NCBI GenBank assembly: GCA_050115495.1
Contig: JASFQK010000010.1
Location: forward strand, 64,001-128,000
Direction: 5' to 3'
Source: Phycisphaerae bacterium
GTDB lineage: Bacteria; Planctomycetota; Phycisphaerae; UBA1845; Fen-1342
Length of the DNA: 64,000 nt
Below, piece after piece: positions 645-20,081 of the stretch. A program made the translations under genes and the position numbers. How positions within the stretch are numbered: position 1 is the stretch's first letter; every line of letters begins with the position of its first letter. A model generated the notes under the pieces. That model searched no databases and was not told the DNA's origin. It saw only the letters and a program-made list of their open reading frames with translations.

Positions 645-2078
645 ATGCCCACCGCAGGATTCGTAACGAAACGTCGCCGGCTGGCCGCCGCGATCGGGTT
701 GGCCGTGTTGTTTGCCGGCTCCGTGGCGATTGCTCAGACCACGCAGCCGGCGAGCGTCCCGGCCGGCATCCCCTTTGCGAACGCCACGTTCGGTTTCGAG
801 ATGATGCTGCCGCCCGGCTGGGTGTACGACCGCGGCATCTTCGCCGGCCCGCAAGGTGCCCTCGGCCTGTTGCGGGGCGAGAGCCAGGGAGCTCGGCAGG
901 CGATGCAGATCCTCGTCTTCCGGCGGGGCGAGATGCCGCCCTTCGGTGACTGGGTGCGTGTCTTCGAGGAGGAGCTGACCGAACTGCACAAGCCGCATCC
1001 GCTCCGCCACGCCGAATGGAAGGGCCTCGATCGCCCGGCGGTGCTGCTGACCGTCGATCCGGTCGTCGCCGGCCGACGGACCATCACGCGCTACCTGTGC
1101 GTCTCGTTCGATCCGAACACCGTGTGGGTGCTGGTGGTGGCCGGCGGTGTGGACGAGGAGGCCGAGGCCGAGGCGCTGGAGTCCTTCTTCAAAACCCTGG
1201 CGGCCACGGTGCACGTCAGCTACGACGCCAATGACGTGCAGGCGGTGGCCGCGGCGCTGAAGCGCGGCATGGCCGTGCTGGAAGAGCTGCGGAGCGGGGC
1301 GGCCGGCGTCGAGGTTGACCCGGCCGAGCACTACTACGAGATGACCATCGACGGGCAGCCCGAGGGGTACATGATGCGCTGGATGCGGCGCGAGTCACAG
1401 GGGCTCGACGATCCGCGCTTCGACGACCGGCACAAGGAAGGGCTGCGCGTGCACGAAGAGTCCTGGAGCTTCGCCGAAGACGGGACCGTGCGCAACTCCG
1501 AGCTGAACCTCTTCAGCAGCCTCGACTTGCGCAGCGAGTTGATCGAGAACCGCCTCACGCAGGTGCCGGCCCCCGACGTGCAGTCGCAACGCCTCTACAT
1601 CGAACTCGACCAGTGCGTGCGTGAGGATACGGTCCTGTTCTCCAGCTTCAGCACGAACCTGACGCTGGCCTTGCCGGAGCCGCGTCGCCCGCTGCCGGTC
1701 GGGCAGGCGTATCTGGACCTAGCCTGGGCTCGTTGTCTACCGCGCCTGCTGCTGAAGGCGCCGACCGAGTCGTACGCGTTCTGGATCTACGACACGCGCA
1801 CGCGGGCGCTGACCATTCATCGCATCCAGCAGCGCGGCCCGGGCCTGGTCCCCGGCGGCAGCGGACGTCCGGGCTATGTCTTCGAGGTGCGTGAGGGCTT
1901 CGCCGCCGAACCGAGCCTCGTCTACACGGATGCTCGCGGGCAGGTCGTGCGGATGGAGATCGGCGGGTTGGTGCTGACGGCCACCGATCGCGAGCAGATC
2001 GACCGGCGTTACGGCGAGCGACGCGAGGCAGCCCGGCAGCGGATGATACCGGCGGCTACCCGTCAGCCCGCACCGTAA
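645..2078 (+). CDS. Hypothetical secreted protein
   Basis: ATG at 645 follows a GAGGA RBS. Signal peptide (RRRLAAAIGLAVLFAGSVAIA|Q) is followed by TTQPAS. No family recognised. Confidence 0.75.
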   Translation: MPTAGFVTKRRRLAAAIGLAVLFAGSVAIAQTTQPASVPAGIPFANATFGFEMMLPPGWVYDRGIFAGPQGALGLLRGESQGARQAMQILVFRRGEMPPFGDWVRVFEEELTELHKPHPLRHAEWKGLDRPAVLLTVDPVVAGRRTITRYLCVSFDPNTVWVLVVAGGVDEEAEAEALESFFKTLAATVHVSYDANDVQAVAAALKRGMAVLEELRSGAAGVEVDPAEHYYEMTIDGQPEGYMMRWMRRESQGLDDPRFDDRHKEGLRVHEESWSFAEDGTVRNSELNLFSSLDLRSELIENRLTQVPAPDVQSQRLYIELDQCVREDTVLFSSFSTNLTLALPEPRRPLPVGQAYLDLAWARCLPRLLLKAPTESYAFWIYDTRTRALTIHRIQQRGPGLVPGGSGRPGYVFEVREGFAAEPSLVYTDARGQVVRMEIGGLVLTATDREQIDRRYGERREAARQRMIPAATRQPAP

Positions 2079-2084
2079 CCGTCC

Positions 2085-3440
2085 TTACCGGCGCGTTCTC
2101 ACCGACACCGTCCAGACGAACGGCGGATCGGCCTGGAGGCGGACGCCCTCCAGCAGCACGCGGTCCGGCGGTGTGGTCTGTTCGAGGGTTAGTCCCACAT
2201 CGTCCAGGCTGGCCGCCGTCACGCGATCCAGCCGGAGAATCACGTCTCCCGGTTGCAGGCCGGCGTCGTCCGCGGGGCTGTTCGCCTCGACGTCCTCGAC
2301 GATCAGGCCCATGTGCGCCGGCAGGTCATAGTGGCGGCGCAGGCGGGCGGGGATGGGGCCCAGTTCCACGCCGATAAGCTGGCGGGCCAGCTTCTGGCCG
2401 TCGGGCAGGGGGATGGCTTGGAGCGGCACCGTCGCGGTCACGTCCTGGTCGCCGCGGTGAACGGTGAGCTTGACCTCGGCGCCGGGGTTCTTGGCCAGCA
2501 GATGCACGTAGTAGTCGATGCCGTCGCGCACGGTGTCGCCGTCGAACCGGGCGATGCGGTCGCCGGGCTTCAGGTCGGCGGCGGCGGCCGGGCTGTCCGG
2601 ACGCACGGCGACGACCCTGGCGTCTTTACCGGCCACTTGCAGGCCGAAGCGCACCCGCGCGTGTCGCTCGACGTCGAGCATGGCCGGCAGCAGCTCCCAC
2701 AGGGCGTCGACCGGGATGGCGAAGCCGATGTTCTGGGCGTCGCCGCGAATCGCCGTGTTGATGCCGATCAACTCGGCGTTGACGTTGAGCAGGGGGCCGC
2801 CGGAGTTGCCGGGGTTGATGGAGGCGTCGGTCTGGATGAGGTTGCGGTAGGTGGTGTCGCGGTTGAATTCGAGGTCGCGGTGCAGGGCGCTGACGATGCC
2901 GGCGGTGACGGTGTGCTGGAGGCCGAGCGGGTTGCCGATGGCGACGACGGTCTCGCCGACCATGATGTCGCTACTGCGGCCGAGCTTCAGGGCGGGCAGC
3001 GGGCGGTCGCCGTCGAGCTTCAGGACGGCGAGGTCGTGCTCAGGATCGACGGCGACGATATCCGCCGTCTTCGTCCGGCCGTCGGCGAAGGTCACCCGCA
3101 CGTCCGAGGCCTGGGCCACGACGTGGGCGTTGGTGACGATGTAACCGCTCTCGTGCACGATGGCACCGGAGCCGACGGACTGCACCCGCTGGTCCCGCGT
3201 ACGCGGCAGCGCGAAGTCGAAGGGGTCGTCAAAGGGCGAGTGCCGGCCCAGGGAGCGCATGCGGATGACCCGCGTCGTGCTGATGTTTACGACGGCGTCA
3301 CGCGATTTCTCGAAGACCTCGACGACGGGCGAGCGGCGGCGGTCCGGGTCGGCGGTCCGCGACGATGTAACGCCCGCGGTCAGCAGGACGGTGGCGGCCA
3401 GAACGAATACGGTTCGGCGGTGGGCATGGTTCATAAGCAT
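2085..3440 (-). CDS. HtrA/DegP-family trypsin-like serine protease with two PDZ domains
   Basis: TNAHVV (His), DLAVLK (Asp) and IQTDASINPGNSGGPL (Ser) motifs; two SPA..AxLxPGD PDZ motifs; signal peptide. Confidence 0.95.
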   Translation of the reverse strand: MLMNHAHRRTVFVLAATVLLTAGVTSSRTADPDRRRSPVVEVFEKSRDAVVNISTTRVIRMRSLGRHSPFDDPFDFALPRTRDQRVQSVGSGAIVHESGYIVTNAHVVAQASDVRVTFADGRTKTADIVAVDPEHDLAVLKLDGDRPLPALKLGRSSDIMVGETVVAIGNPLGLQHTVTAGIVSALHRDLEFNRDTTYRNLIQTDASINPGNSGGPLLNVNAELIGINTAIRGDAQNIGFAIPVDALWELLPAMLDVERHARVRFGLQVAGKDARVVAVRPDSPAAAADLKPGDRIARFDGDTVRDGIDYYVHLLAKNPGAEVKLTVHRGDQDVTATVPLQAIPLPDGQKLARQLIGVELGPIPARLRRHYDLPAHMGLIVEDVEANSPADDAGLQPGDVILRLDRVTAASLDDVGLTLEQTTPPDRVLLEGVRLQADPPFVWTVSVRTRR

Positions 3441-3690
3441 CTTCCTATCGTGCCGGTCCAGGCCGTGCTGACTCCCCCGGCCGGCCCGGTCGGTCTGATT
3501 TTATGGCGGCGGCCCGGGTGGCGGCACCGCCGGACGGGCCCTTTCCAAGTCCGTGACGGCCATTGTCGCCCATTGCTGTCAAAAAGCGCTCCCGGAGCCC
3601 CCTGGCCCGCGGCTTGCCGGGGCCGGTCAGCCGTGGCATAATGTTCGGTTCTGATTCATTGACATTCGTAACGTCATCGGGAGCTTGTGA

Positions 3691-4422
3691 ATGGGAGCAA
3701 CGCTCGAAGCCCTTCTGGAACTACAGGACGTCGAGCTTCAGATTGTTGATATACGCCGGCAACTCGCCCAGAAAGAGCGGCTCGTGCGGCGGCAGTCGGC
3801 CAAGCTTGAAGCGGCGCAGGCCAAGCTCGCCCAGGAACGCAGCGTACTTCAGCGCAATCAGATCGAGATAGACGAGCTCGACATGGACCTCAAGGGCCGC
3901 TCGGCCCAGGTCACGCGTCTCCGCGAGCACCTCAACTCCGTCAAGACGAACAAGGAATACGCGGCCGTTCTGGCACAGCTCAACAACGAGAAAGCGGACG
4001 CCAGCCGTCTCGAAGCCCGGGCTCTGCAGATGATGGAGGGGCTTGAGTCGCAGCGTCAGGCGGTGGCCGAGTGTGAGCGCGAGGAGCAGGAGGGGGCGGC
4101 CCGTCTCGGCGATCTGAAGTCCCAGTCGGCGCAGTCGCAGCGTACGTTTTCGGAGAAGCTCGAGGAATTGCAGGGCCGTCGGAAGCGCTGTGCAGAGGCT
4201 CTGCCGCGGGAGACGATGTCCCTGTTCGAGCGGTTGTCGGAACGCTACGAGGGCGAAGTACTGGCTCGCATCGAGCGGACGCATCCGCGGCGGGACGAGT
4301 TCACGTGCGGCGGGTGCCACATGACGCTCTCCGCGGAGACGGCCAACGCAGCCCTCACGCGGGACGACGTGCTCCAGTGCCAGAACTGCGGGCGCATTCT
4401 GTATATCTTGAAAGGCACGTAG
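3691..4422 (+). CDS. Coiled-coil protein with C-terminal C4 zinc ribbon (DUF164/CT398 family)
   Basis: LLELQDVELQI start, long coiled coil, KTNKEY, CGGCHM...CQNCGRILY. Confidence 0.9.
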   Translation: MGATLEALLELQDVELQIVDIRRQLAQKERLVRRQSAKLEAAQAKLAQERSVLQRNQIEIDELDMDLKGRSAQVTRLREHLNSVKTNKEYAAVLAQLNNEKADASRLEARALQMMEGLESQRQAVAECEREEQEGAARLGDLKSQSAQSQRTFSEKLEELQGRRKRCAEALPRETMSLFERLSERYEGEVLARIERTHPRRDEFTCGGCHMTLSAETANAALTRDDVLQCQNCGRILYILKGT

Positions 4423-4430
4423 GCGGGCGC

Positions 4431-5258
4431 GTGGGTTTGATCATCCATGTCGACGGGGGCTCGCGGGGTAACCCGGGCCCGGCCGGCGCCGGCGTCCGCA
4501 TCGCCGCCGCCGACGGCACGCTGATCTTTGAGGGGGCGTATTACCTCGGTCGCCAGACGAACAACGCCGCCGAGTACCACGCCGTCATCCGCGCCCTGAC
4601 GCGGGCGCAGCAGTGCGGGGACCCGCAGCTCACGGTGTTCTCGGATAGCGAGCTGCTCGTGCGGCAGATCACGGGGGAATACGAGGTCAAGAGTCCGAAT
4701 CTCATCCAGCTCTACCGGCAGGTGCAATTGCTCCTGCTGCGCGTGCCAAACTGGAGCTTCCGGCACGTTCGGCGGGAGGAGAACACGCGGGCGGACGAGC
4801 TGGCGAACCTGGCGATGGATCGGAAGCGCGACTCGGTCGTCTACGACGCCGCCGGCGAATCCGGGAACGGTTCCAGCTCGGATGCCGAGGCGTCGGTGGA
4901 CGACGACGATGTACCGGCGCCGGCGTCTGAAGACGTGTCCGATAACGACATCATTGGGCCGGAAGAGCGGGCCGTGAGCATTACGGTTGCCCGGTCGCCG
5001 AAGGCGGGGGCCTGTCCGGCGGGGCTGGGCAAGGGCGAGTTCGTGGTGCAGGCGACGCTGCCGGCGGGGATGTGCGTGCACGCTGCCCACGCCCTGTTGC
5101 CGACGGTGTTGGCCATTCTCAATACGGACGCCGAGGAGTTCGCCGCCGTCCCGACGATGACGGTGCGCTGTGGCCGGCCGGGTTGCGGCGCGACGTTTCA
5201 AGTCTCGGCGGTCAGGTCGCCGAATGGGCGGGGACACCGAAAGCGCAGGAAGCCCTGA
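4431..5258 (+). CDS. rnhA: Ribonuclease HI (RNase_HI_like) with acidic linker and Cys-rich C-terminal domain
   Basis: GTG start. Catalytic motifs VDGGSRGNPGPAG, TNNAAEY, FSDSEL and ENTRADELAN are present. It follows the DUF164 gene, a known gene neighbourhood. Confidence 0.85.
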   Translation: MGLIIHVDGGSRGNPGPAGAGVRIAAADGTLIFEGAYYLGRQTNNAAEYHAVIRALTRAQQCGDPQLTVFSDSELLVRQITGEYEVKSPNLIQLYRQVQLLLLRVPNWSFRHVRREENTRADELANLAMDRKRDSVVYDAAGESGNGSSSDAEASVDDDDVPAPASEDVSDNDIIGPEERAVSITVARSPKAGACPAGLGKGEFVVQATLPAGMCVHAAHALLPTVLAILNTDAEEFAAVPTMTVRCGRPGCGATFQVSAVRSPNGRGHRKRRKP

Positions 5259-5260
5259 GC

Positions 5261-5821
5261 TTACTTCGTCCAGCCGCCGGCGCGTTGGGCCAGTTGCTTG
5301 ATGTGCCGCTCGACGGACGCCTGGACCTCGGCCATGGCGGCGGCGGCGTGGTCCCATCCCTCGGACTGGATTTCCACTCCTTCGAGCTGCTTGTACGTCA
5401 GGAAGAAGTGCTCGACCTCGCGCAGGTAGTGCTTGGGCACATCGGCCAGGTCGCGGACGTGCTCGAAGAGCGGGTCGGAGTTGGGCACGCCGAGGATCTT
5501 GTAGTCGTTGACGCCGCGGTCCTTCATGCGGAACAGACCGACGACGTGGGTCTCGATGAGGCAGCCGCTGAAGGTCGGCTCGTTGACCATGACGATGACG
5601 TCGAGGGGGTCGCCGTCCTCGGCGAGCGTTTGGGGGATGAAGCCGTAATCGCCGGGATAGTGGCTGGAGGAATAGAGGTAGCGGTCGAGACGCATCAGGC
5701 CGGTGACCTTGTCGACCTCGAACTTGCTGCGGCGACCCTTGGGGATCTCGACGATGGTATTGACGACTTCCGGCGGTCTGGCGCCGGCGGGAACATGCAT
5801 GTAGGGGGCGCGATCGGGCAT
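5261..5821 (-). CDS. ppa: Inorganic pyrophosphatase (family I)
   Basis: EIPKG..KFE, YPGDYGFIPQTLAEDGDPLD, HFFLTYKQLEG. Confidence 0.97.
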   Translation of the reverse strand: MPDRAPYMHVPAGARPPEVVNTIVEIPKGRRSKFEVDKVTGLMRLDRYLYSSSHYPGDYGFIPQTLAEDGDPLDVIVMVNEPTFSGCLIETHVVGLFRMKDRGVNDYKILGVPNSDPLFEHVRDLADVPKHYLREVEHFFLTYKQLEGVEIQSEGWDHAAAAMAEVQASVERHIKQLAQRAGGWTK

Positions 5822-6061
5822 CGGCGCGGTTCTCCCGGGCTCGCTATGCATCGAGGCTAGGAGCCGGACCGCAGGCTGTCAAATCGGTCCGCCAGCATGG
5901 CCTCCACGGCGCTCTCGCGGGCCCGTACCGGGCCCCGCGTGCCAGCCGTTCACTTCTTCATTACAATGCTTCCCTTCCGTGCCACGCCCCGGACGCGGCG
6001 ATCCGAGGGCACACTCCGGTGCGGGGACAAGCTCAGTTACGCCGGCTGGAAAGGAACAACC

Positions 6062-7624
6062 ATGGCAGTCGTATTGGACGGGAACTCGCTCTCGATCGAC
6101 AAGGTAATCGCGGTGGCCCGGGAGTGGGCTCCGGTCAGCATATCCCCCGAGGCCCGCGAGCGCGTGCAGCGCTCCCGGGCACTGCTGGAGAAGCTCGTCG
6201 CCGAGGATGTGGCCATTTACGGCGTAACGACCGGCATTGGCGAACTCGCCCGCGTCCGCATCTCCCCCGAACAGAGCGCCGAGCTCAGCCGGCGGATCGT
6301 GTACAGCCATTCCGCCGGCACCGGCGACCCGTTCCCGGAGGATTCCGTACGGGCGGCCATGCTCCTGCGGGCCAACGTGCTGTCCAAGGGCTGCTCCGGC
6401 GTGCGCGTGCAGCTCATCGAGACCGTCCTCGACATGATCAACAAGGGCGTCGTGCCGTACATCAACGAGAAGGGCTCGCTCGGCGTCAGCGGCGACCTGT
6501 CGCCGATGTCGCAGTTCGCCGAGGTCGCGCTTGGCGAAGGCCGGGCTTTCTACAAGGGCGAGCTCATGACCGGCGCCGACGCCATGAAGCGCGCCGGCGT
6601 CAAACCGACCAACCTGACGTACAAGGAGGGGCTCGGGCTCATCAACGGCTCGCAGATGATGACTGGCGGGGCGGCGCTGCTGTGCTACGACGCCGAACGC
6701 GTCATCAAGAACGCCGTGATCGCCGCGGCCATGACCTTGGATGCCCTGCGGGCGGTCGAGCGGGCGTTCGATCCGACCGTGCATCGCGCCCGCGGCTTCG
6801 CCGGGCAGTGCGCCGTCGCCGCTAACCTGCTGCGTCTGTTCGAGGGCAGCGAGATCATGGCGGACAAGACGGGCAAGGTGCAGGACGGCTACAGCATGCG
6901 GTGCACGCCGCAGGCGCAGGGCCCGACGCTCGAAGTGCTGGAGTACGTGCGGAACGTCGTGCACACGGAGATGAACGCCGCCGCCGACAACCCGCTGTTC
7001 TTCCCCGATGAGGGCAAGTACTTCGCCGCCGGCAACTTCCACGGTCAGCCGGTGGGCATGGCGGTCGACTTCCTGTGCATCGGCCTGGCGGAGCTGGCGG
7101 ATCTGTCCGAGCGGCACACGAACCGCATGCTCAACCCCGTGCTGTCCGGCCTGCCCGACTTCCTCATCGAGGGCAACGGGCTCAACTCAGGCCTGATGGT
7201 CGCCCAGTACACCGCCGCGGCGCTGGTCTCCGAGAACAAGGTGCTCTCGCACCCGGCGAGCGTGGACTCCATCAGCGTCTCGGCCGACCAGGAAGATCAT
7301 GTAAGCATGGGGCCGATCGCGGTGCGGAAGTGTGGCGAGATTCTGCGGAACGTCCGGGCCGTGCTGGCGATCGAGATGATGGCCGCGGCGCAGGCCATGG
7401 ACTTCTACGGCGGCAAGCGGCCGGGGCGGGGCACTGCGGTCGCGTACAAGCTGATCCGCGAGAAGGTGCCGTTCATGAAGGACGACCGGGTGATGTACCC
7501 GGACATCGAGGCGATCCGCCAGCTCATCGCGTCGAACAAGATCGTCGAGGCAGTTGAGGCGGAGATCGGCCCGTTGCAGATGGCCCGCGACCTGGACTTG
7601 CCGCGGCCGAACGTCGGGCAGTAG
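6062..7624 (+). CDS. hutH: Histidine ammonia-lyase (MIO-dependent aromatic amino acid lyase)
   Basis: YGVTTGIG, YSHSAGTG (HAL Ser-His), GSLGVSGDL, KEGLGLING, QDGYSMRC, DNPL, GNFHG, QEDHVSM. AAGGA RBS precedes ATG 6062. Confidence 0.88.
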   Translation: MAVVLDGNSLSIDKVIAVAREWAPVSISPEARERVQRSRALLEKLVAEDVAIYGVTTGIGELARVRISPEQSAELSRRIVYSHSAGTGDPFPEDSVRAAMLLRANVLSKGCSGVRVQLIETVLDMINKGVVPYINEKGSLGVSGDLSPMSQFAEVALGEGRAFYKGELMTGADAMKRAGVKPTNLTYKEGLGLINGSQMMTGGAALLCYDAERVIKNAVIAAAMTLDALRAVERAFDPTVHRARGFAGQCAVAANLLRLFEGSEIMADKTGKVQDGYSMRCTPQAQGPTLEVLEYVRNVVHTEMNAAADNPLFFPDEGKYFAAGNFHGQPVGMAVDFLCIGLAELADLSERHTNRMLNPVLSGLPDFLIEGNGLNSGLMVAQYTAAALVSENKVLSHPASVDSISVSADQEDHVSMGPIAVRKCGEILRNVRAVLAIEMMAAAQAMDFYGGKRPGRGTAVAYKLIREKVPFMKDDRVMYPDIEAIRQLIASNKIVEAVEAEIGPLQMARDLDLPRPNVGQ

Positions 7625-7665
7625 CAGAATGTGGCACCGGCGCTCAGTGGCCGGTGTTGACGTCG

Positions 7666-7720
7666 AGGAAGGGGACTGGCTCCGCAGTGCGAAGCGCTCG
7701 CGGTGCTGGTCCCCTCCTTC
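7666..7720. repeat. REP-like palindrome, family A (GGGGACTGGCTCC...GGTGCxxGTCCCC), copy 1
   Basis: Imperfect inverted repeat between convergent hutH and the phosphatase gene. The same arms occur in reverse orientation at 50553 and 57620. Confidence 0.75.
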
Positions 7721-7723
7721 GCG

Positions 7724-9172
7724 CTAGCGCACCCAGCGGCCTTCCCACATGCTGGCGGCGTTGAAAACGTTCAGGCTGGCGCCGTCGCTGATCATGAGGA
7801 TGATGTTCCTGGCACCGCTGTTGCGCATGATTGTGAAGATGTCCGTGTTGTCGAGGTAGCGATCGATCCCCCAGTGGACCCGGGCGGTCTCGTCAGTGCC
7901 GTCGAGCAGCTTCGCCGCGGCGGCAGCGCCGGCACCACGGATGTAGAAGGGCACGAGGCAGTGCGTGTGGCCGCCGGAGTAGTGCCGCATGCCGGGCAGG
8001 TGACCTTCACCTTGATCGACGATGTCGTCAAACGGGACGGTGTCGGCGTTCGGTCCCCAAACCATGCCGCAATCGTGGTCGGACGTGACGATCACGAGCG
8101 TCTCGTCCCAATTGCTGTGGGTCTCGACCCACTTGCACACCGCTTCGACCGCACGGTTGAAGTCCATTTGCTCTTCGATCATGCGTGCCGGCTGTCTGGC
8201 GTGGTTGGCCCAGTCCACGGCGCCGCCCTCGATGAGCAGGAAGAAGCCGTCTTCGTCGGCATCGAGGATGTTCAGGGCGCCGCGCGTCATGAGTGCGAGC
8301 GTCGGTACACCTTCGTTCAGCGGGTCACCCTGTGAACCGCGGCTCGGGTCGTGGACCGGCGAAGAGCGGGCGTCGTCACCGTCGATCTTCCCGTCGCCGT
8401 TCCAGTCGGCCGTGGGTGTGCGGCGTCCCTGCAGCGTGTCGCTGACCTGCGGGCAGCCGAGGAAGTGGCCGGTGGGATCGCCGGTGGTCAGGGCCTGGAA
8501 CTCGGCGAGGGTCTGGCGGAGCTGCCAGCGGCCGGGGTGCGTGCCGGCTTTGAGCTGTGCCCAGGTATCGGCGCCGCCGACGTACTTGGGGTCGCGCTCG
8601 GCGGGGTGGCCGTCGTTGTCGAAGCCCGGGTTGCCGCAGCCCATGATGACGTCGAGGACGTCGCCGTTGAGCATTTCGTTGGCGATGGCTTCGTAGTTGC
8701 CGCGTTTGACGTTGTGCGCGTTGGACATGCCGGCCGGCGTGGCGTGGCTCCACCACACGGTAGAGATCGTCCCGGTTGCCTTGCCCACGCTGCGGGCCCA
8801 CTCGACGATGGTCGGCTTGATGGCCTCGTCCTTGTCGCTCCAGTTGATCGCGCCGACGTAGGTCTTCTGACCGGTGGCCATGGCCGTGATGGCCGCCGCG
8901 GAGTCGGTGCAGCCGGACTTGAGCCATTCGTAACCGCGGAAGCCGGACTCCGTCGGCGTCGCGTCCCAGGCCAACGCCGGGTCGTACACGACGGCTGGAT
9001 CCTGCGTGCCCTTGCCACTCGGTTTGCTCGACGGGTTCAGTGGGTACGTCGTGCAGCCGTACCTGACCCAGCCGGGGCCGTCGTACACCTGTGTGCTGTG
9101 ACCGCCGGCCAGGGCGGTTGCGGTGATGGCGGATACGGTTAACAGGACGAGGGCGGCAGTGGTACGGTTCAC
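7724..9172 (-). CDS. Alkaline phosphatase family protein (secreted), apparently circularly permuted
   Basis: TDSAAAITAMATG (catalytic Ser), HATPA, IEGGAVDWANH, TSDHDCG and HT motifs. The NIILMISDG motif is at the C-terminus. Confidence 0.9.
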   Translation of the reverse strand: MNRTTAALVLLTVSAITATALAGGHSTQVYDGPGWVRYGCTTYPLNPSSKPSGKGTQDPAVVYDPALAWDATPTESGFRGYEWLKSGCTDSAAAITAMATGQKTYVGAINWSDKDEAIKPTIVEWARSVGKATGTISTVWWSHATPAGMSNAHNVKRGNYEAIANEMLNGDVLDVIMGCGNPGFDNDGHPAERDPKYVGGADTWAQLKAGTHPGRWQLRQTLAEFQALTTGDPTGHFLGCPQVSDTLQGRRTPTADWNGDGKIDGDDARSSPVHDPSRGSQGDPLNEGVPTLALMTRGALNILDADEDGFFLLIEGGAVDWANHARQPARMIEEQMDFNRAVEAVCKWVETHSNWDETLVIVTSDHDCGMVWGPNADTVPFDDIVDQGEGHLPGMRHYSGGHTHCLVPFYIRGAGAAAAAKLLDGTDETARVHWGIDRYLDNTDIFTIMRNSGARNIILMISDGASLNVFNAASMWEGRWVR

Positions 9173-9528
9173 GCTTCTGTCTCCGATCCTGGGTTCAGCC
9201 GCGGTGCGTGTCGGCGGTCGTGGCGGTTACGCCGTGCTCGCCCGAAGCACTGAGGCTGCGTCGGTTCTCACTGAGTGAACCTGCCCCGCACTGGTCACCT
9301 CAACCGGCAAACCACGTCCGGCGGCCAGCCCGCGCGTTGCGGCCGGCCGCACCAGGTCACCGGGCAGAACCATATAGATACGTCGAGGTTGTTTCAAGCA
9401 CATCAAGCCGCCGCGAAAGCCCCGCCAAGATCGTGTTGCCGTTGACCGCCGTCGCCGTCAGCGCGGCGCCGGAACGTCCATCCGGCTTGTACCGCAGAGC
9501 GGGCCCGCAACCGTCGGCGTGAGGCCGA

Positions 9529-10545
<1,017 letters not shown>

Positions 10546-10591
10546 CTATGGAGCCGTCGGTCGAAAGGGGCCCCGCGGGCCGCGACGGCTG

Positions 10592-11884
10592 TTACTGCGG
10601 ATGGAGGACGAGGCTCTCGCGCTCGACCTCGTAGATGCCCGAATACGTGTTCTCCAGCGGCTCTTCGCGCGCGAACTCGCAGACGACCAGGCCGGTCTCG
10701 CCCATGCGGCGGGCGAAATCGAGGGCCAGCGACACGGCGTCGTCGCGGTCGCGGGCGACGACCTGGTAGCTGCGTTGGAAGCGCGTGACGGGGGCGCCGC
10801 GGGTGGCGCCGGGCTCGTGGATCTCGCAGAGGCCGTCCCGGTGGTTGGCTTCGACCACGAGGCTGAACCAGTAGCCGTGGCGCAGGTAGCGGCCGGTCAA
10901 TTCGCGGTAGGCCTCGCACAACTCGACCGTGCAGGCGTTGGCGTGATAGGCGCGGTGCAGCAAGTGCTCGCCCTGCAAGCGCATCTTCCGCCGGGCGAAG
11001 AAGTCCATGGCCATCTCGAAGACGTAGGAGGCTTCGGAGAAGCCGGACTCGTTCGTGCCGCGGACGGCCTTGGCGTAGCAGCGCTGGGCGGCGCGCAGGT
11101 TGCCCTTCTCCTCGTGGATGAAAGCCGCCAGCAGCAGGGCGCGGCTTGATTCGCCGTCCACCTCACGTAGCCGGTCGAGCTGCCTCTCGGCCAGCGGGAT
11201 CTGTCCGGCCCGTACGGCCGACACTCCCCAGTTCAGGCGCAGCGAGGCTGAGTCCGGCTGGATTTCCTCGGCCCACCGATAGCAGGCGAAGGCCTCGTCG
11301 TACTCGTCGTCATCGCTGTACAGGATGGCCAGGGCGATCCACTGTTCGGCGTCTTCCGGGGCCAGCGACAGGTAGCGCTTCAGCGTGCTCTTGGCGGCGG
11401 CAGTGTCGCCGGACTCGCTCAGTGCCGCTGCCTTGCGTTGCAGGGCCCAGTCGAGGTCGGCGCCGAGTTCGAGGGCACGGTCGTAGAGGCGGATGGCGGT
11501 GGCGTAATCGCGCAGGCGCTCGTAGACGAGGGCCAGGTTGGCCAGCAGCGACTCGTCCTCGGGGTCGAGCGAGACGGCGGTTTCGAGTGCCTCGCGGGCT
11601 TGTTCGAGATCGTTCGTTCCCGACAGCACAACACCGAGAGCGCCGAACAGTCGCGCCGATTCGGGGTATTCCTCGATAAGCGGATCGAGCATGAGCAGGG
11701 CTTCCTCGGCCTGCCCGGTGTCCGCCAGGGCGTACGCGCGCAGGGCACCCCACTCGATGCGGTCGTCTGCGTCCACGAGCTCGCCTTCGACCTCGTTCAG
11801 ACAACGCAGGGTTTCCGCCGGGCGACCGGCCTCCAGCAGACGGTTTGCCCGCTCGAGAACGGCGTCTATGTCTTCGGGCTTCAT
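10592..11884 (-). CDS. Tetratricopeptide repeat protein
   Basis: Multiple TPR-type helical repeats (LANLALVYE..A..LYDRALEL; WIALAILYS..AFACY), followed by a non-TPR C-terminal domain. Confidence 0.85.
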   Translation of the reverse strand: MKPEDIDAVLERANRLLEAGRPAETLRCLNEVEGELVDADDRIEWGALRAYALADTGQAEEALLMLDPLIEEYPESARLFGALGVVLSGTNDLEQAREALETAVSLDPEDESLLANLALVYERLRDYATAIRLYDRALELGADLDWALQRKAAALSESGDTAAAKSTLKRYLSLAPEDAEQWIALAILYSDDDEYDEAFACYRWAEEIQPDSASLRLNWGVSAVRAGQIPLAERQLDRLREVDGESSRALLLAAFIHEEKGNLRAAQRCYAKAVRGTNESGFSEASYVFEMAMDFFARRKMRLQGEHLLHRAYHANACTVELCEAYRELTGRYLRHGYWFSLVVEANHRDGLCEIHEPGATRGAPVTRFQRSYQVVARDRDDAVSLALDFARRMGETGLVVCEFAREEPLENTYSGIYEVERESLVLHPQ

Positions 11885-12027
11885 GCAGTGCCTCTTGCCG
11901 AGCAAACGGCCGCGCGTCCGCGGCCGGGGGTTTCACACCCTGTATAGTATATCCGAGATCGCCCGGGGGGTCGTCCAGGGGGCTCCGGCGGTTGCGGCGT
12001 GTCGCCGTCTGGCGGATCATGGCGCCC

Positions 12028-12702
12028 ATGAGCACGCTTCTGGAATCCGTCCGGCCTCCCCATATCCGGGCGTCGGCGACGCAGAGACGATTGAACTGCC
12101 CACGTACGCTGTTGCGCTACGCGCTCGTCGCAATGACGGCGTCGCTCGCCGGCGGCTGCGCCAACTGGAGCTACGACCGCGTGCGGTTGGGCATGACGCA
12201 GAGCGAATGCGAGCGCCAGTTGCCGGCGGAATCGCTCTGGCGCACGGAGCTCGGCTTCTGTCATCGGACGACTGACATCGCCGGCCGCACCGATGCCCTG
12301 GTGATTCTGCTCGGACGCGATCAGCGTGTGGCCGGCAAGCTGCAAGCAACGCGCTATCCGTCGCAGCAGCGCTGGGGGCCCGAACGCGGATTCCTGCTGC
12401 GCGGCGAGATTGACCCGGTCGCGACGGGGCTGGAGGCGACGGGGCCGGTGGATGCGCTGCGCGCGGTGGCGGCCGATTTGGCGGATTATCAAGGGGCCAA
12501 GCCGGCGCTGGACGCACACGCCCTGGTCGCCGCGGGCCTGGTGCGGCTGGTCGAGCGCTGGCCGCACGTCGGGCCGGCGGGGGCGAGCTTCCCGCGTCTG
12601 GCGGAAGCGCTGGACGTCGTGCCGGGCGGCGGCGAAGGGCTCCTGCGCGTGGATGCCCGCGGGATCTACTTCTTCGAGTATCGGCAGCCGATCGCCCCCT
12701 GA
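12028..12702 (+). CDS. Hypothetical lipoprotein (start uncertain)
   Basis: Lipobox-like LAGGC followed by [10 protein letters not shown]..., which resembles an SmpA/OmlA-like start. Confidence 0.6.
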
Positions 12703-12788
12703 GGGCCCTTGTTGCTGCCGAGACGCTCGGCGAGGGATTGCCCCGCGGCAGTATAATGGTGTGCCAGAGACGCTAGCCGGACGGGCGG

Positions 12789-13166
12789 ATGCGGCGTTTC
12801 GTCGACATAGCGGTGGATCGCTTGCGCACGCTTCAGGACCTGGGCGCGCAGACCGCCGTGTTCGTGCGCACCGACCGTCGACTGCGAATCCTGTTCATCC
12901 TGTCTGCGGTTGTCGTTCTGGTTCTGGTGGCCGGCTTTTATTGGACGTTCTTCGGTGGAGCCGAGGCGACACCGGCCGGCGATGCGGACGATGCGTGGCG
13001 GTATCTGGTCGTTTGCTCGAACTGCGGCTACCGGGAACGCTGTACCGAGCATCCGGCCCACCATCTCGAGCAGCGCCACGGAGCGCTCAAGTGTCCGAAG
13101 TGTGGCGAGTTCAAGGCGGCGTGGTACCGCCGCGGAGGTCAGGCACTGCCGCCCGGCGGCTGGTAG
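12789..13166 (+). CDS. Single-pass membrane protein with zinc ribbon
   Basis: TM helix [23 protein letters not shown]...CPKC; TATAAT at about 12752 upstream. Confidence 0.7.
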
Positions 13167-13198
13167 GGGAGACCGGCGGGGCTGAACGGGAGAGGCCG

Positions 13199-14233
13199 AT
13201 GACATCGCCGACCCGCCGACTCGCATTCACGTTGATCGAGTTGCTCGTCGTCGTCGCCATTATCGCCCTGCTCATCGCCATTCTTCTGCCGAGCATGAGC
13301 CGGGCGCGCGAACAGGCCAAGCGGGCCTATTGCCTGTCGAATCTGCACAGCATCGGTTCGGCGGCCCTCTCCTACGCCAGCGAGGACTCCAAGGAACTCA
13401 TCATCCCCATCCATCAGATGATGGTCTCGCCGATGCCCGCCGACGATTACTGGCTCTGGCGGACGGCGATCTGGTTCAGCGCCGGCGGCCGGTCGGCGCC
13501 GCTGCCCTTCATGACCGACTCGGGGGCGAAGCCCCTGGACGACAGCAGCCGCTGGGCGGCGCATACCCGCCCGCTGAACCGCTACATCTACCACGACGTT
13601 CATCAGGCGGACGGCAAGGCGCTCAAGCTGTTTCAGTGTCCGTCGGATCGCGGCTATCCGGAACATGAGGACATCGACGATTCCCCGATAGAGAACTCCA
13701 ACCGGCCGTGCTACGACACACTCGGCAACAGCTATCGCGCCAGCCTGTACTGCTTCCTGCCGCCGCCCGGCGGTCCGTACACCGGCGCGTTTGCCATCGG
13801 GCCATGGGGACATCGCCTGTCCACGATCACGAGCCCGTCACAGGTGGCGGTCTTCGGCGAGCCCACGTTCTTCAACATGATCGGGATGGACAACGGCGTC
13901 GTGGATCCCGACCCGGTGCTGGCCACCGGCTGGCACCAGGGCTGGATGGTGGACAACCTGCTCTTCTGCGACGGCTCGGCTCGACCCACCCGCGCCGAGG
14001 GGCACGAGACCGTCGGCGAGGCGGTCGCCCGCCGCGAGATGGGCGTGGGCAGCAACTGGGATCTGATCTCGCGTGGGCCGGGCTGGCGGTTTGATCTGTG
14101 GCCAACACCCGGAGCGAAGATCTGGGCCCAGGACCCGAACGACCTGTTGTGGAACCCGCCCTACACGGCTTGGCCGAACGAACGCTGGCGGTACTGGCCG
14201 TTCAACGGGGCGCAGAACAACCTGCACGACTGA
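13199..14233 (+). CDS. Prepilin-type N-terminal cleavage/methylation protein (DUF1559/H-X9-DG type)
   Basis: [46 protein letters not shown]...NLLFCDG. Confidence 0.93.
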
Positions 14234-14248
14234 CCGCGGCCGGGGGGA

Positions 14249-14764
14249 TCAGCGGAGACCTTCCACGTAACGGCTGGCGAGGTCGACGTACAGCTTCTTG
14301 AAGTGCGTCCACTGTTCCTTGAAATCGTCGGCGACGCGCTTGTCGAGCACTCGGGCGGGCGTGCCGACGGCGATGCAGTCTGGGGGGATCTCCTGCCGCT
14401 GGCGGACGACCGCCCCTTCGCCAACCACGGCCCACCGCCCGACGACGGCCCAGTCGGAAACGATCGAACCCATGCCGACGAGGGCGTAATCGCTCACGCT
14501 GGCATTGTGGATGATGGCGCCGTGCCCGACGGTGACCCATTCGCCCAGGGTGGTCTGCTCGCCGGGTCGAGCGTGGATGACGCAATTGTCCTCGACGCTG
14601 GAGTAAGCTCCGATAACTATGCGGCCATAGTCCCCGCGGATCCGGGCGCCGGGGCCGATCCAGCATCCCGGTCCGATCTGGACATCGCCCAGGACGTCGG
14701 CGGAGGGGTGCACGTACGTGCCGGCACCGAGGCTGGGCGTCTTGCCTTCAAACGTGTTGATCAT
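14249..14764 (-). CDS. Gamma-carbonic anhydrase family hexapeptide-repeat protein
   Basis: VHPSADVLGDV.IG, IRGD, EDNCVIH, TVGHGAIIH, VGTPARV. Confidence 0.92.
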   Translation of the reverse strand: MINTFEGKTPSLGAGTYVHPSADVLGDVQIGPGCWIGPGARIRGDYGRIVIGAYSSVEDNCVIHARPGEQTTLGEWVTVGHGAIIHNASVSDYALVGMGSIVSDWAVVGRWAVVGEGAVVRQRQEIPPDCIAVGTPARVLDKRVADDFKEQWTHFKKLYVDLASRYVEGLR

Positions 14765-14859
14765 GGTCTGCCTCGCGCGAACAGAAGCGGCGCAGCGCAC
14801 CTGCGCGGCTCGGGCACTATAGCGGATTGGCCGGGTGTGGGCGACGGTGGGGGGGGAGG

Positions 14860-15108
14860 TCAGCTCGGCGGGGCGACTTCCTCGACGGGCACGGCTTCTT
14901 CGGCTTCCTCGACGCTGTCGCCATTCTCGTCGTCCGATTCGCCCTTGACCGCCTTGGTGCGGGATTGGAGGAGGAGCTTGCCGTATTCGTCGAGCAGGGA
15001 CTCGCTTGATTCCTTGCAGCGCAGCACCGCGTGCAGCAGCACGAGGGCTCCGGTACAGGCGGCAACGAGCGTGGCGAACAGTGCGGCGGACACGGACGTC
15101 GTCCCCAT
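14860..15108 (-). CDS. Small single-pass membrane protein with acidic tail
   Basis: 82 aa; N-terminal hydrophobic helix and Glu-rich tail. Confidence 0.55.
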   Translation of the reverse strand: MGTTSVSAALFATLVAACTGALVLLHAVLRCKESSESLLDEYGKLLLQSRTKAVKGESDDENGDSVEEAEEAVPVEEVAPPS

Positions 15109-16680: not shown

Positions 16681-17229
16681 ATGATGCATAGGCACATGCG
16701 GCTGATGGTGGTGGCCATGGTGCTGAGCGTCGGCCTGTCCATGGGCGGCTGTTTCTCGCCGGCGAGCTACCTCAATCCGGACTTTCTGTCGGCCCTGGGG
16801 GCGGGGTCGCAGGTGGCGAGCATTCCCGGTGACGCCCCGGCGCTGCTGGTCTCGCTGGAGAACCGCACGGACCGCATGGTGCGGGCGATGCTCTCCTACC
16901 GGCTGCCGGACGTCGGCGTGGAAACGGTGACGTACACGATCGCGGCCGGCGAATCGACGGCGCAGGCGCTGATCTGCCCGGTCGAGGAGATCACGCTGGG
17001 TGACGTCTCCGACGCCAACGTGATCGGCGCGGAAATCGTGCTGGACACGGGCGTGGGTTACGAGGCCCTGGCTCCGGTGATCGAGGTGGAGCCGTTCGGC
17101 GTGGTGATGAAGGACGGGGTCAACTACGACTGCGGCGACGCGATCCAGTTCACGGTGCAGGCTTCGGGCGTGACCCGTTCGGGCTACCAGATCTTCGCCT
17201 ACATCCAACGGACGGGGGACAATCCATGA
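16681..17229 (+). CDS. Hypothetical lipoprotein (paralogue 2)
   Basis: Lipobox MGGC; LNPDFLSALG, CPVE, DGVNYDCGDAIQF. Confidence 0.8.
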   Translation: MMHRHMRLMVVAMVLSVGLSMGGCFSPASYLNPDFLSALGAGSQVASIPGDAPALLVSLENRTDRMVRAMLSYRLPDVGVETVTYTIAAGESTAQALICPVEEITLGDVSDANVIGAEIVLDTGVGYEALAPVIEVEPFGVVMKDGVNYDCGDAIQFTVQASGVTRSGYQIFAYIQRTGDNP

Positions 17230-20081
17230 TGGCAGAAGGCCGCCGAGGCTTCCGGGAGCATGCGATGAGAGCAGTGCAAGGGTTCGTGGCGGCGCTGGCC
17301 GTGATGGCGCTGGGCGGCTGCCCCATGCAGCAGGCCGTGGAGTACATCGCGGGGCAGACCGGCGACCGGGCCATCGTGTCGGACACCGCTTCGGTGAGCG
17401 TCTTCTCGCCGCAGAGCGACCTGGCCATCACCGGGGGCACGCCGGTTGAGGTGAACTGGCGTGCGGTGGGCACGACGGCGTTTGCCGTGGTCGACGTCCT
17501 CATCGACGTGGACGAGGAGCCCGACAACGGCAACGAGATCGTCGCGTTCAGCAACCTGGACCTTAGTGCGACGACGGAGACGCTGGACACGACGCAACTG
17601 ACGGCGGGGACGTACTACGTCGGCGTGCGGCTGGAGGAGTTGGGCGAGGTCGTGACGGCAGGTTACGCCGCCGGCCGCCTGATCATCAACCAGCGTCCCG
17701 ACTTGTACTTCACGTCGCCGCGTGACAACTTCCGGTTTGACCGCACGCCTCGCGTCAACCCGAGCTTCGACGTCTCCTGGGTGGTCAACGATCCGGACAG
17801 CACGGTTTCGGTGCGGGTCTATCTGGATCCGGACGCGACGCCGAACGGCAACGAATTGCTGCTGCGCACGAGCGACGCGCAGGATACGGACAGCTTCACC
17901 TTCGACCTGCCCACGATGAGCTTCGAGGCCGGGACGTACTACGTGCTGGCGCTCGTGTCCGACGGTGTAGACACTTTCGCCTTCTACGCCCCGTGTACCA
18001 TCCTGCTCCGCTCGCGGCTCGCCGGTCCGATCGACCTGCGCGACATGTACTTGGTCGAGAGCGGCGTCCGCGGGGCCATTTTCGAGGGTTTCAACCCGCG
18101 AGACAACGTTGGCAGTTTCGTCGCTACGCTCCAAGACATCGACAACGACGGCTTTGACGACTTCATCATCGTCGGGCAGTTCGGCAAGCCCAACTACGAA
18201 TCCAACCAGCAGCGTCTTGGCGTCGGCGAGGCCTACCTCATCTACGGTCGTGCCGACGCCTTCACCGGTTTGATCAACCTCAACTCGGCCGGGACTCTCT
18301 TCCGCGCTGAAATTTACACGGGCGTGCCTGAGGTCACCGATCCCATCCGTCCCAGCCGCGGCATCACCAGCTTCACGACGCTCACCGACTGGGATCGCGA
18401 CGGCGTGCGGGAGTTCGCCTTCGGCCTGCCGTTCACTGATTCTCAGGGGCTGGGTACTAGCGGGTTACTGGATCCATCGGGCTATTTCCGCTCCGGCGGC
18501 GTGGTCGTGGTGGCTGGCTCGTCGCTACGGCCGGATCTCGGTTTCCCCGGGCGCAACGTGTTCACCCTCGCCGAATTCGGCACGCGGCCGCACCAGCCGC
18601 AGACGACGACCGAATGCCCGCAGGGCTTCGGCGGGCCGAAGTACTCGACCTTCGCCGGTGCTGGCCCGGGCGGCTCCACGTTGTTCCACCGGCAGTTGTT
18701 CAATCCGGCCGACCCGCTCGTCGGTGGTCTCGTTCTCGGTTGCCGTTTCTCGACGCACGAGTTCGACGATCAGTACGGCGAGTCGATCTCCAACTATGAC
18801 TTCAATGGGCTGGTCATGAGTGCCCCGAACCGTGACGCCTCCGTGTCTGTTTCCGGCATTGACGAGGTTCCCGGCGCTGGGGTGGTTACGGTCTACATGC
18901 CGGCGGTCTTCGCGCCCTTCTTCCCGTGGTCGATTGCCAACTCCACGCCAGCCAACACCAACCTCGGCTATGAGGGCGCCCCCACGGAGCCCGAGGAGAT
19001 GGACCACCTGCCCCAGGGTGGGCCGTATCACTATGTGCTGGACGATATCGGTTTCATTGCCGCTCCCGGGCTTGGCTCCATCATGGCCACGCCTGGCTAC
19101 ACGGTCAGCGATGCCACGGCGCCGCCGGACTGCAACGCCGTCTCACACGGCGGCGTGGGGCTGGGCACGACACTAACGCTTTGGACGGATGAGCCCGGTG
19201 CCCGACTGAGCAACGCAGCGGGCATTGGCGACGTGAACTCCGATGGTTTGCAGGATTTGCTGATCGGGGCCCCGTTCATCGGCGATGGCGCCGGCGCGTG
19301 CTTCATCGTGCTGGGGCGCGTGCGGGGCCTGGTCCGCGGTGCGGAGCTTCAGGTTGAGGAGCTTGCTCTCCCGATGAACAGCTCCGACCCGGCTGAGGAG
19401 CGGATCTTTGACGGCATCCGCATCGTCGGCAGTGCCGGCGAGCGCCTGGGGCAGGCCCAGGATGATGCCGGTGATTTCAATAACGACGGCTTCGGCGATG
19501 TTGTTATCGGTTCTTCGTTGCTCAACAATCGGCAGGGTGGGGCCGCCGTGTTCTTCGGCTCCCGTGAGATCATCAACCTGACGCAGACAGACATCCCCTT
19601 CAGCGAGATTCCGGCTCGGGGGCTCGGCGTGGTCTTCGTCGGCGAAGAGGAGGGTGACTTGGCTGGAGCACGCGTGTGTTCGGCCGGCGATGTGGATGGG
19701 GATGGGAATGATGACATTCTCATTGCGGCGCCCAACCGGTCTATCCAGATGGATGTTGACCTGGACGGTGAACTGGAGATCGACCGCACCGAGTGCGGCG
19801 TTGTGTACCTGATCTACGGCTCGCCGGATCTCAGCGGTACGATCAGCCTGTCCCTCGTGGGCACGGAACGGCTGCCTGGCGCGGTCTTCATCGGCCGCAA
19901 CAGCCAGGACCAGCTCGGGGCTGGTCTCGGCGAACAGGGGGACCGCAGCAACGGCATGGCTCGTGCTGGGGACGTCGATGGCGACGGCTTCCAGGACCTC
20001 CTGCTCGGTGCCGTGCGGGCGTCGCCCCGCGACCGGGCCCAGGCCGGCGAGGCGTACTTGATCTACGGTACGGGCAACTGA
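17226..20081 (+). CDS. Large lipoprotein with Ig-like domains and FG-GAP (integrin-alpha beta-propeller) repeats
   Basis: Lipobox LGGC. Two similar N-terminal beta domains (PDNGNE/PNGNE...AGTYYV). Repeats GDVNSDGLQDLLIGAP, GDFNNDGFGDVVIG, GDVDGDGNDDILIAAP and G.AYLIYG. Confidence 0.9.
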   Translation: MMAEGRRGFREHAMRAVQGFVAALAVMALGGCPMQQAVEYIAGQTGDRAIVSDTASVSVFSPQSDLAITGGTPVEVNWRAVGTTAFAVVDVLIDVDEEPDNGNEIVAFSNLDLSATTETLDTTQLTAGTYYVGVRLEELGEVVTAGYAAGRLIINQRPDLYFTSPRDNFRFDRTPRVNPSFDVSWVVNDPDSTVSVRVYLDPDATPNGNELLLRTSDAQDTDSFTFDLPTMSFEAGTYYVLALVSDGVDTFAFYAPCTILLRSRLAGPIDLRDMYLVESGVRGAIFEGFNPRDNVGSFVATLQDIDNDGFDDFIIVGQFGKPNYESNQQRLGVGEAYLIYGRADAFTGLINLNSAGTLFRAEIYTGVPEVTDPIRPSRGITSFTTLTDWDRDGVREFAFGLPFTDSQGLGTSGLLDPSGYFRSGGVVVVAGSSLRPDLGFPGRNVFTLAEFGTRPHQPQTTTECPQGFGGPKYSTFAGAGPGGSTLFHRQLFNPADPLVGGLVLGCRFSTHEFDDQYGESISNYDFNGLVMSAPNRDASVSVSGIDEVPGAGVVTVYMPAVFAPFFPWSIANSTPANTNLGYEGAPTEPEEMDHLPQGGPYHYVLDDIGFIAAPGLGSIMATPGYTVSDATAPPDCNAVSHGGVGLGTTLTLWTDEPGARLSNAAGIGDVNSDGLQDLLIGAPFIGDGAGACFIVLGRVRGLVRGAELQVEELALPMNSSDPAEERIFDGIRIVGSAGERLGQAQDDAGDFNNDGFGDVVIGSSLLNNRQGGAAVFFGSREIINLTQTDIPFSEIPARGLGVVFVGEEEGDLAGARVCSAGDVDGDGNDDILIAAPNRSIQMDVDLDGELEIDRTECGVVYLIYGSPDLSGTISLSLVGTERLPGAVFIGRNSQDQLGAGLGEQGDRSNGMARAGDVDGDGFQDLLLGAVRASPRDRAQAGEAYLIYGTGN

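Follow-up and report, generated by a model that had tools for sequence, protein, structure and literature searches.

Alkaline phosphatase of the PhoA family serves both as a model for studying metal catalysis, export and folding and as a standard reporter, and circular permutation is in itself a well-known phenomenon. The locus at 7724..9172 of the window (the whole stretch of DNA that was analysed, 64,000 nucleotides) raises the question of whether the two have met in nature. An earlier note had proposed that the open reading frame found there, which runs on the minus strand from a GTG start to a TAG stop and encodes 482 aa, is an alkaline phosphatase (AP) whose first strand and helix have moved to the C-terminus.

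First strand and helix at the C-terminus of a PhoA-family phosphatase

The encoded protein matched the Pfam family Alk_phosphatase (PF00245) from aa 85 to 370, on positions 55 to 315 of the 423 of the profile, with an E-value of 1.3e-42 and 146.7 bits against a cut-off of 24.4. Two out-of-order Pfam matches had been anticipated, but this one stretch was all that was returned, and the last 30 residues, searched alone, gave no Pfam match even with E allowed up to 1. This means that profile searches conceal the permutation, as Pfam shows one ordinary partial match. Against the E. coli-type PhoA equivalog model NF007810, the protein scored 108.7 bits, below the cut-off of 540.

The order of the segments was apparent from a comparison with P0009, a planctomycete AP of normal order. 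By BLASTP, residues 55-469 of P0009 aligned to 26-452 of the window protein (E 1e-162), and residues 22-48 to 454-480 (63% identical, E 1.9e-8). Because these segments are matched in swapped order and do not overlap, the two proteins are related as circular permutants. The last 30 residues scored 98 against P0009, where the best of 500 shuffles reached 44; with four normal-order relatives the tail scores ranged from 66 to 98, and the 500 shuffles made for each did not exceed 41-44. As a second match, phmmer paired residues 450-473 with 38-61 of E. coli AP, in the expected place but below significance. When aa 395-482 alone were used in a homologue search, only the window protein itself was found among 74 candidates. 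In the canonical chain, the strand bearing Asp51 lies ahead of the catalytic Ser; here the Ser is residue 91 and the strand, NIILMISDG, spans aa 456-464. It had been noted at about 7781-7807, near the C-terminus, after the usual helix and a short linker, and this is where it lies; no such motif is present ahead of the catalytic motif TDSAA (aa 89-93), so that the mature N-terminus indeed lacks the Asp strand, as had been claimed. We conclude that the protein encoded at 7724..9172 is a PhoA-family phosphatase in which the first strand and helix come behind the usual last helix, an order that recurs in relatives (see below). Table 1 gives the layout.

Table 1. Features of the permuted phosphatase gene, in window coordinates
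Feature	Position	Strand	Basis
Gene for the permuted PhoA-family phosphatase (482 aa)	7724..9172	-	ORF, Pfam PF00245, AlphaFold
Probable Sec signal peptide, aa 1-23, ends A-L-A	9104..9172	-	Sequence: basic start, hydrophobic core, AxA end
New N-terminus, aa 24-41	9050..9103	-	P0009 55-469 aligned to aa 26-452; junction sequences; model strand 36-41
Asp90-Ser91 (E. coli Asp101-Ser102), catalytic nucleophile	8900..8905	-	phmmer alignment to 1y7a
His143, Thr145, Arg157 (E. coli 153, 155, 166)	8702..8746	-	phmmer alignment to 1y7a
Glu315, Asp320, Trp321, His324 (E. coli 322, 327, 328, 331)	8201..8230	-	phmmer alignment to 1y7a
Asp365-His366 (E. coli Asp369-His370)	8075..8080	-	phmmer alignment to 1y7a
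His402, putative equivalent of E. coli His412	7967..7969	-	Motif, invariance in 97/97 aligned relatives
Helix that is normally terminal (aa 441-451) plus the short linker between the old ends (aa 452-455)	7808..7852	-	Model helix 443-451
Relocated first strand NIILMISDG, aa 456-464, with Asp463 (E. coli Asp51)	7781..7807	-	Alignment, model strand 456-462
Relocated first helix, aa 467-477, and protein end	7727..7780	-	Model

The fold, the Ser nucleophile in its DS motif, the substrate Arg and the three-metal ligands are common to the window protein and to PhoA-family APs (PF00245; E. coli AP, TAB5 AP 2iuc, Shewanella AP 3a52), and the difference is that the first strand and helix come last. All ligands of the three metal sites (E. 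coli 51, 155, 322, 327, 331, 369, 370 and 412) are present, as D463, T145, E315, D320, H324, D365, H366 and H402. Apart from Asp463 they keep their normal order, which agrees with the earlier note; this was read from the alignment to 1y7a, His402 lying outside the printed part and being equated with 412 by motif. Asp463 is encoded by 7786-7784, and D463-G464 is invariant in 8 of the 8 aligned proteins. The top sequence match of the window protein, 1y7a, is a D153H/K328W mutant, with which it shares the His153 and Trp328 state; presumably the His143/Trp321 pair could favour Co or Mg. According to PMC3949524, Asp51 of E. coli AP coordinates the metal at the second Zn site as well as at the Mg site; the tail would therefore be needed for catalysis if the enzyme works like its family.

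An AlphaFold2 model was computed from an alignment of 52 rows of permuted and tandem proteins (40 of them tandems), in which the tail is carried in the same order. The model reached a pLDDT of 93.3 and a pTM of 0.91, and the helix, strand and helix of its tail (443-451, 456-462 and 467-477) stood at pLDDT 97-98. It has the alpha/beta sandwich fold (Foldseek E 4e-22 to 1ed8). The best order-bound structural alignment, by VIA-align, was with 3a52 (Z 35.5, rmsd 2.1, 296 aligned) and began at residue 31 of that structure, past its first strand, and all 50 order-bound alignments listed with solved APs ended at residue 454-455. The AlphaFold check that had been proposed thus favoured the permuted reading, the tail being predicted to occupy the first-strand slot of the central sheet.

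The mature chain begins in the loop which, in normal-order relatives, comes after the first helix, and this cut point is a loop of variable length in those proteins. From Asp441 to Asp463 there are 22 residues, the shortest class seen. The tail of the gene has a GC3 of 0.90, the core one of 0.87. Leaders similar to aa 1-23 are present in relatives, and the window protein would be exported by Sec and cleaved after aa 23. Genome-wide, neither a second gene of this PhoA kind nor a repeat of the AP gene was found. A sigma-70-like promoter match lies at 9397-9369 on the minus strand, about 200 bases upstream of the gene (9/12, consensus match only), and no terminator-like site was found for it. The neighbouring genes encode a histidine ammonia-lyase family protein, a malate dehydrogenase and a pyrophosphatase. 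A comparison of window 2001-15000 with 11 loci showed no conserved gene neighbourhood: apart from the AP gene and its shadow frames, nothing matched. Two proteins typical of planctomycetes are encoded further along on the plus strand, a prepilin-type N-methylation/DUF1559 protein (13004-14233) and a 951-aa FG-GAP repeat protein (17226-20081).

Relatives of the permuted protein and their anchor

To place the window protein among its homologues, we surveyed 511 redundant rows, drawn from 190 loci and 319 proteins. There were 393 rows in normal order, 21 with the core followed by the strand, 1 partial row of the latter kind, and 42 complete tandems; other rows without a first strand look truncated at their start and were not counted as permuted. 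At 90%, the 22 permuted rows fell into 16 clusters. Fifteen of these, the cluster of the window protein included, form a main group at 42-68% identity to the window protein, so homologues with the same order, which the earlier note had suggested seeking, do exist. The remaining cluster, P0206, which includes a Thermoguttaceae MAG protein, has a C-terminal first strand with part of the first helix only, a slightly different cut and an unusual N-terminal region. Among the best 120 listed matches, 7 besides the window protein have the same order. In a comparison of 7 relatives, the identity to the window protein is 52-78% for the tail versus 55-69% for the core, so the tail is as conserved as the core. 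The named records of permuted proteins are planctomycete MAGs. Their distribution is patchy: among 40 relatives, a close homologue was found only in G317, of the same family, where it is the normal-order P0016, and in 300 genomes of the class only G160, among the matches listed, reached the end of the permuted profile. One locus, L036, seemed to lack the first strand (4700-5200) and proved to be a normal-order AP gene with a frameshift just past the first helix, probably a sequencing error.

An assembly artefact was named at the outset as something that could undo the permuted reading. The read support is partial. Run X1, which may be the source of the window, has a 37-kb contig that covers 7000-10000 and shows no differences. 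Runs X2 and X3 gave short pieces only, none across the junction; one run alone contains the whole stretch, the junction is spanned by no independent run, and no RNA run was listed as containing the stretch. Against an artefact, 14 further clusters (at the identities given above), which come from different collections, have the same order and cut; one near-identical cluster has 13 members, and the AP gene is not repeated in its genome. Since the order recurs in independently assembled relatives, an artefact can be practically dismissed.

The permuted relatives differ from PhoA-family APs in a further respect, a PEP-CTERM-like tail. By pattern, it follows the moved helix in 11 of the 15 clusters; the other 4, including the window protein, stop right after the helix. 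The anchor stands directly behind the helix except in P0084, where dockerin-like repeats lie in between. TIGR02595 scored above cut-off for P0006 and was not detected for P0003, P0084 and P0136. In the normal-order P0016, the anchor comes after the old last helix, not after the first helix. The PEP-CTERM tail (PEP motif, hydrophobic stretch, basic end) is absent from the window protein, and a frameshifted anchor was sought downstream of the gene in three frames and not found. Its final WVR matches the W-V/I-PEP of the relatives; the idea that these three residues are what is left of another copy of the gene (GWVRY) was rejected, because the relatives run on as W-V/I-PEP. The genome of the window, G000, encodes 128 PEP-CTERM-like tails among 23,281 frames, on many contigs (by a crude pattern), and one exosortase above cut-off (C7:122169-122921), and the two nearest relatives, P0003 and P0004, are anchored. 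For these reasons the anchor was likely lost in the window copy.

Origin of the permuted order

The normal-order planctomycete APs used for comparison were P0016, P0009 and the Thermopirellula and Thermostilla APs. P0009 and P0016 share 53-55% core identity with the window protein, and the same sequence type of first strand and helix. In-frame AP-AP tandems are common among relatives, with 42 of the 511 rows, which are redundant, being complete two-domain proteins and more being partly scored. In several of them both copies are sisters (FastTree), and tandem fusions apparently arose several times. Short-linker tandem fusions were seen in P0122, P0271, P0272 and L025 (Opitutales), and in many Bacteroidota-type proteins with T9SS tails. 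From the old end to the first Asp, the linker is mostly 22-29 residues in permuted proteins versus mostly 29-33 in tandems.

Other cuts were also observed. In P0167, P0175, P0216 and P0248, the last His-bearing segment and the last helix stand ahead of the first strand; residues 111-462 of the P0167 model (pLDDT 90.7) align to E. coli AP 39-381. Six choice-of-anchor-I proteins (P0303, P0305, P0307, P0310, P0313 and P0314) contain AP domains permuted at yet another point, one to three repeats per protein, each domain with the catalytic motif first and the first strand, helix and loop last, so that about 100 N-terminal residues have moved to the end. They branch far from the window protein (FastTree). 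P0303, P0305, P0307 and P0310 are repeats of an already permuted unit, and P0307 is ACF47209.1, from the cultured Prosthecochloris aestuarii DSM 271.

For the shared core, IQ-TREE trees were built from two selections, of 58 and 31 rows, which did not include distant tandems or most of the normal proteins. The subgroup of the window protein (10 rows, support 100/99) is purely permuted. Monophyly of the permuted cores was rejected (p-AU 0.0012 and 0.0004), as the normal-order P0142 and P0144 nest among them. The closest tandems, those of Opitutales, form their own clade and are not sister to the permuted group. Tests of an origin separate from the main group did not establish one, either for the second cut (P0175, P0216; p-AU 0.295) or for P0206 (p-AU 0.107). 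In P0142 and P0144 the ancestral junction of helix and loop is intact, as in P0016, P0022 and P0121, which makes a permutation reversed by re-duplication unlikely. Windows at their ends mostly match normal-order proteins best, the first window of P0144 matching the permuted P0084 best, if weakly; both proteins are possible mosaics.

Two accounts of these data were weighed. In one, the PhoA subfamily has been repeatedly permuted via in-frame tandem fusions, at three or four cuts, and most stages (single, tandem, permuted, permuted tandem) are still living; in the lineage of the window protein, the enzyme would be inactive until fully exported, and the anchor would sit at a new face. We consider the odds on this account, taken as a whole, to be even. 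The metal-bridging strand is made last and adjoins the sorting signal, hence there would be no activity before full export. In the other account, the order is real but no whole-gene tandem was involved: a short 5' piece was moved by cut-and-paste or via a DNA circle as intermediate, and permuted and normal alleles later recombined their cores. No direct tandem ancestor was found, nor, among the 511 rows, any single core flanked on both sides by the first strand, and P0142 and P0144 kept the ancestral junction even though their cores nest among permuted ones. However, in-frame tandems are frequent in the subfamily, repeats of a permuted unit exist, and trimming of a fusion would be expected to leave several cut points whose junctions are short and alike, as observed, so that we view the transfer of a 5' piece as a doubtful, if possible, origin. 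The other cuts and the tandems of permuted units fit duplication and trimming. Several permutations in one family have been explained by duplication and trimming of both ends for the naturally permuted DNA methyltransferases (PMC5944983); their fold is unrelated to PhoA, and the duplication model has experimental support there, whereas for AP we infer it. The trees could reflect either a tandem that persisted and was trimmed more than once or recombination among the forms.

Expected activity and significance

We estimate at about 0.8 the probability that this PhoA-family phosphatase, with its first strand and helix C-terminal, is an ordinary exported phosphomonoesterase once its tail folds back and supplies Asp463. 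The swapped order and the complete ligand set are shown by the sequence; the protein would be exported as described above, and the old last helix is predicted to turn via the four-residue linker into the old first strand. By analogy with the family, Ser91 would form a phosphoenzyme, assisted by two Zn and a third metal. The gene would have arisen by in-frame fusion of two AP genes, both ends being trimmed, with a PEP-CTERM anchor behind the moved helix; the window copy would later have lost this anchor, and its product may be soluble in the periplasm or released. The permuted enzyme is a natural one and is probably active, and its chemistry is probably ordinary.

The permuted family could also be functional while the anchorless window copy is decaying or inactive. 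This copy lacks the tail that P0003 and P0004 have, its end branch, at 0.31-0.37, is longer than those of the other two members of its trio (0.11-0.16), perhaps because selection relaxed once the anchor was lost, and a search with the window protein did not find it in 6 of the 6 other genomes of the genus, where the best matches were distant (E 3e-18 or worse). Such decay is nonetheless unlikely: the frame is open, all ligands are intact, GC3 is as high in the tail as reported above, 3 other clusters likewise end cleanly past the helix without an anchor, and the sigma-70-like site (a consensus match only) lies upstream. Less likely still is that the chain acts as an oligomer with swapped strands, in which each tail completes the sheet of a neighbouring subunit. 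The PhoA-family enzymes of known structure are dimers, in Halomonas AP the first helix contributes to the interface (PMC3949524), and a terminal strand could swap, but the monomer model closes by a four-residue turn at pLDDT 98.

We found no published report of a natural PhoA permutant in the open literature, which was the scope of the search. PMC12419801, in which the relevant terms occur, deals with another fold. The window protein is a new topological variant of a known enzyme, and part of a wider reshuffling in the subfamily. Kojima, Ayabe and Ueda reportedly engineered, in 2005 (PMID 16198264), a circularly permuted E. coli AP of high specific activity; going by its title, this is a laboratory construct, whereas the window protein is natural. 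If the title holds, the PhoA fold tolerates permutation.

A natural PhoA that makes the core strand bearing the metal-bridging Asp last lends itself to testing in which order the protein folds and whether it is activated after export, and it gives engineers new termini to work with. Since normal, tandem and permuted forms exist at about 50% identity, and one permuted form comes from a cultured strain, the duplication route to a new topology becomes directly testable.
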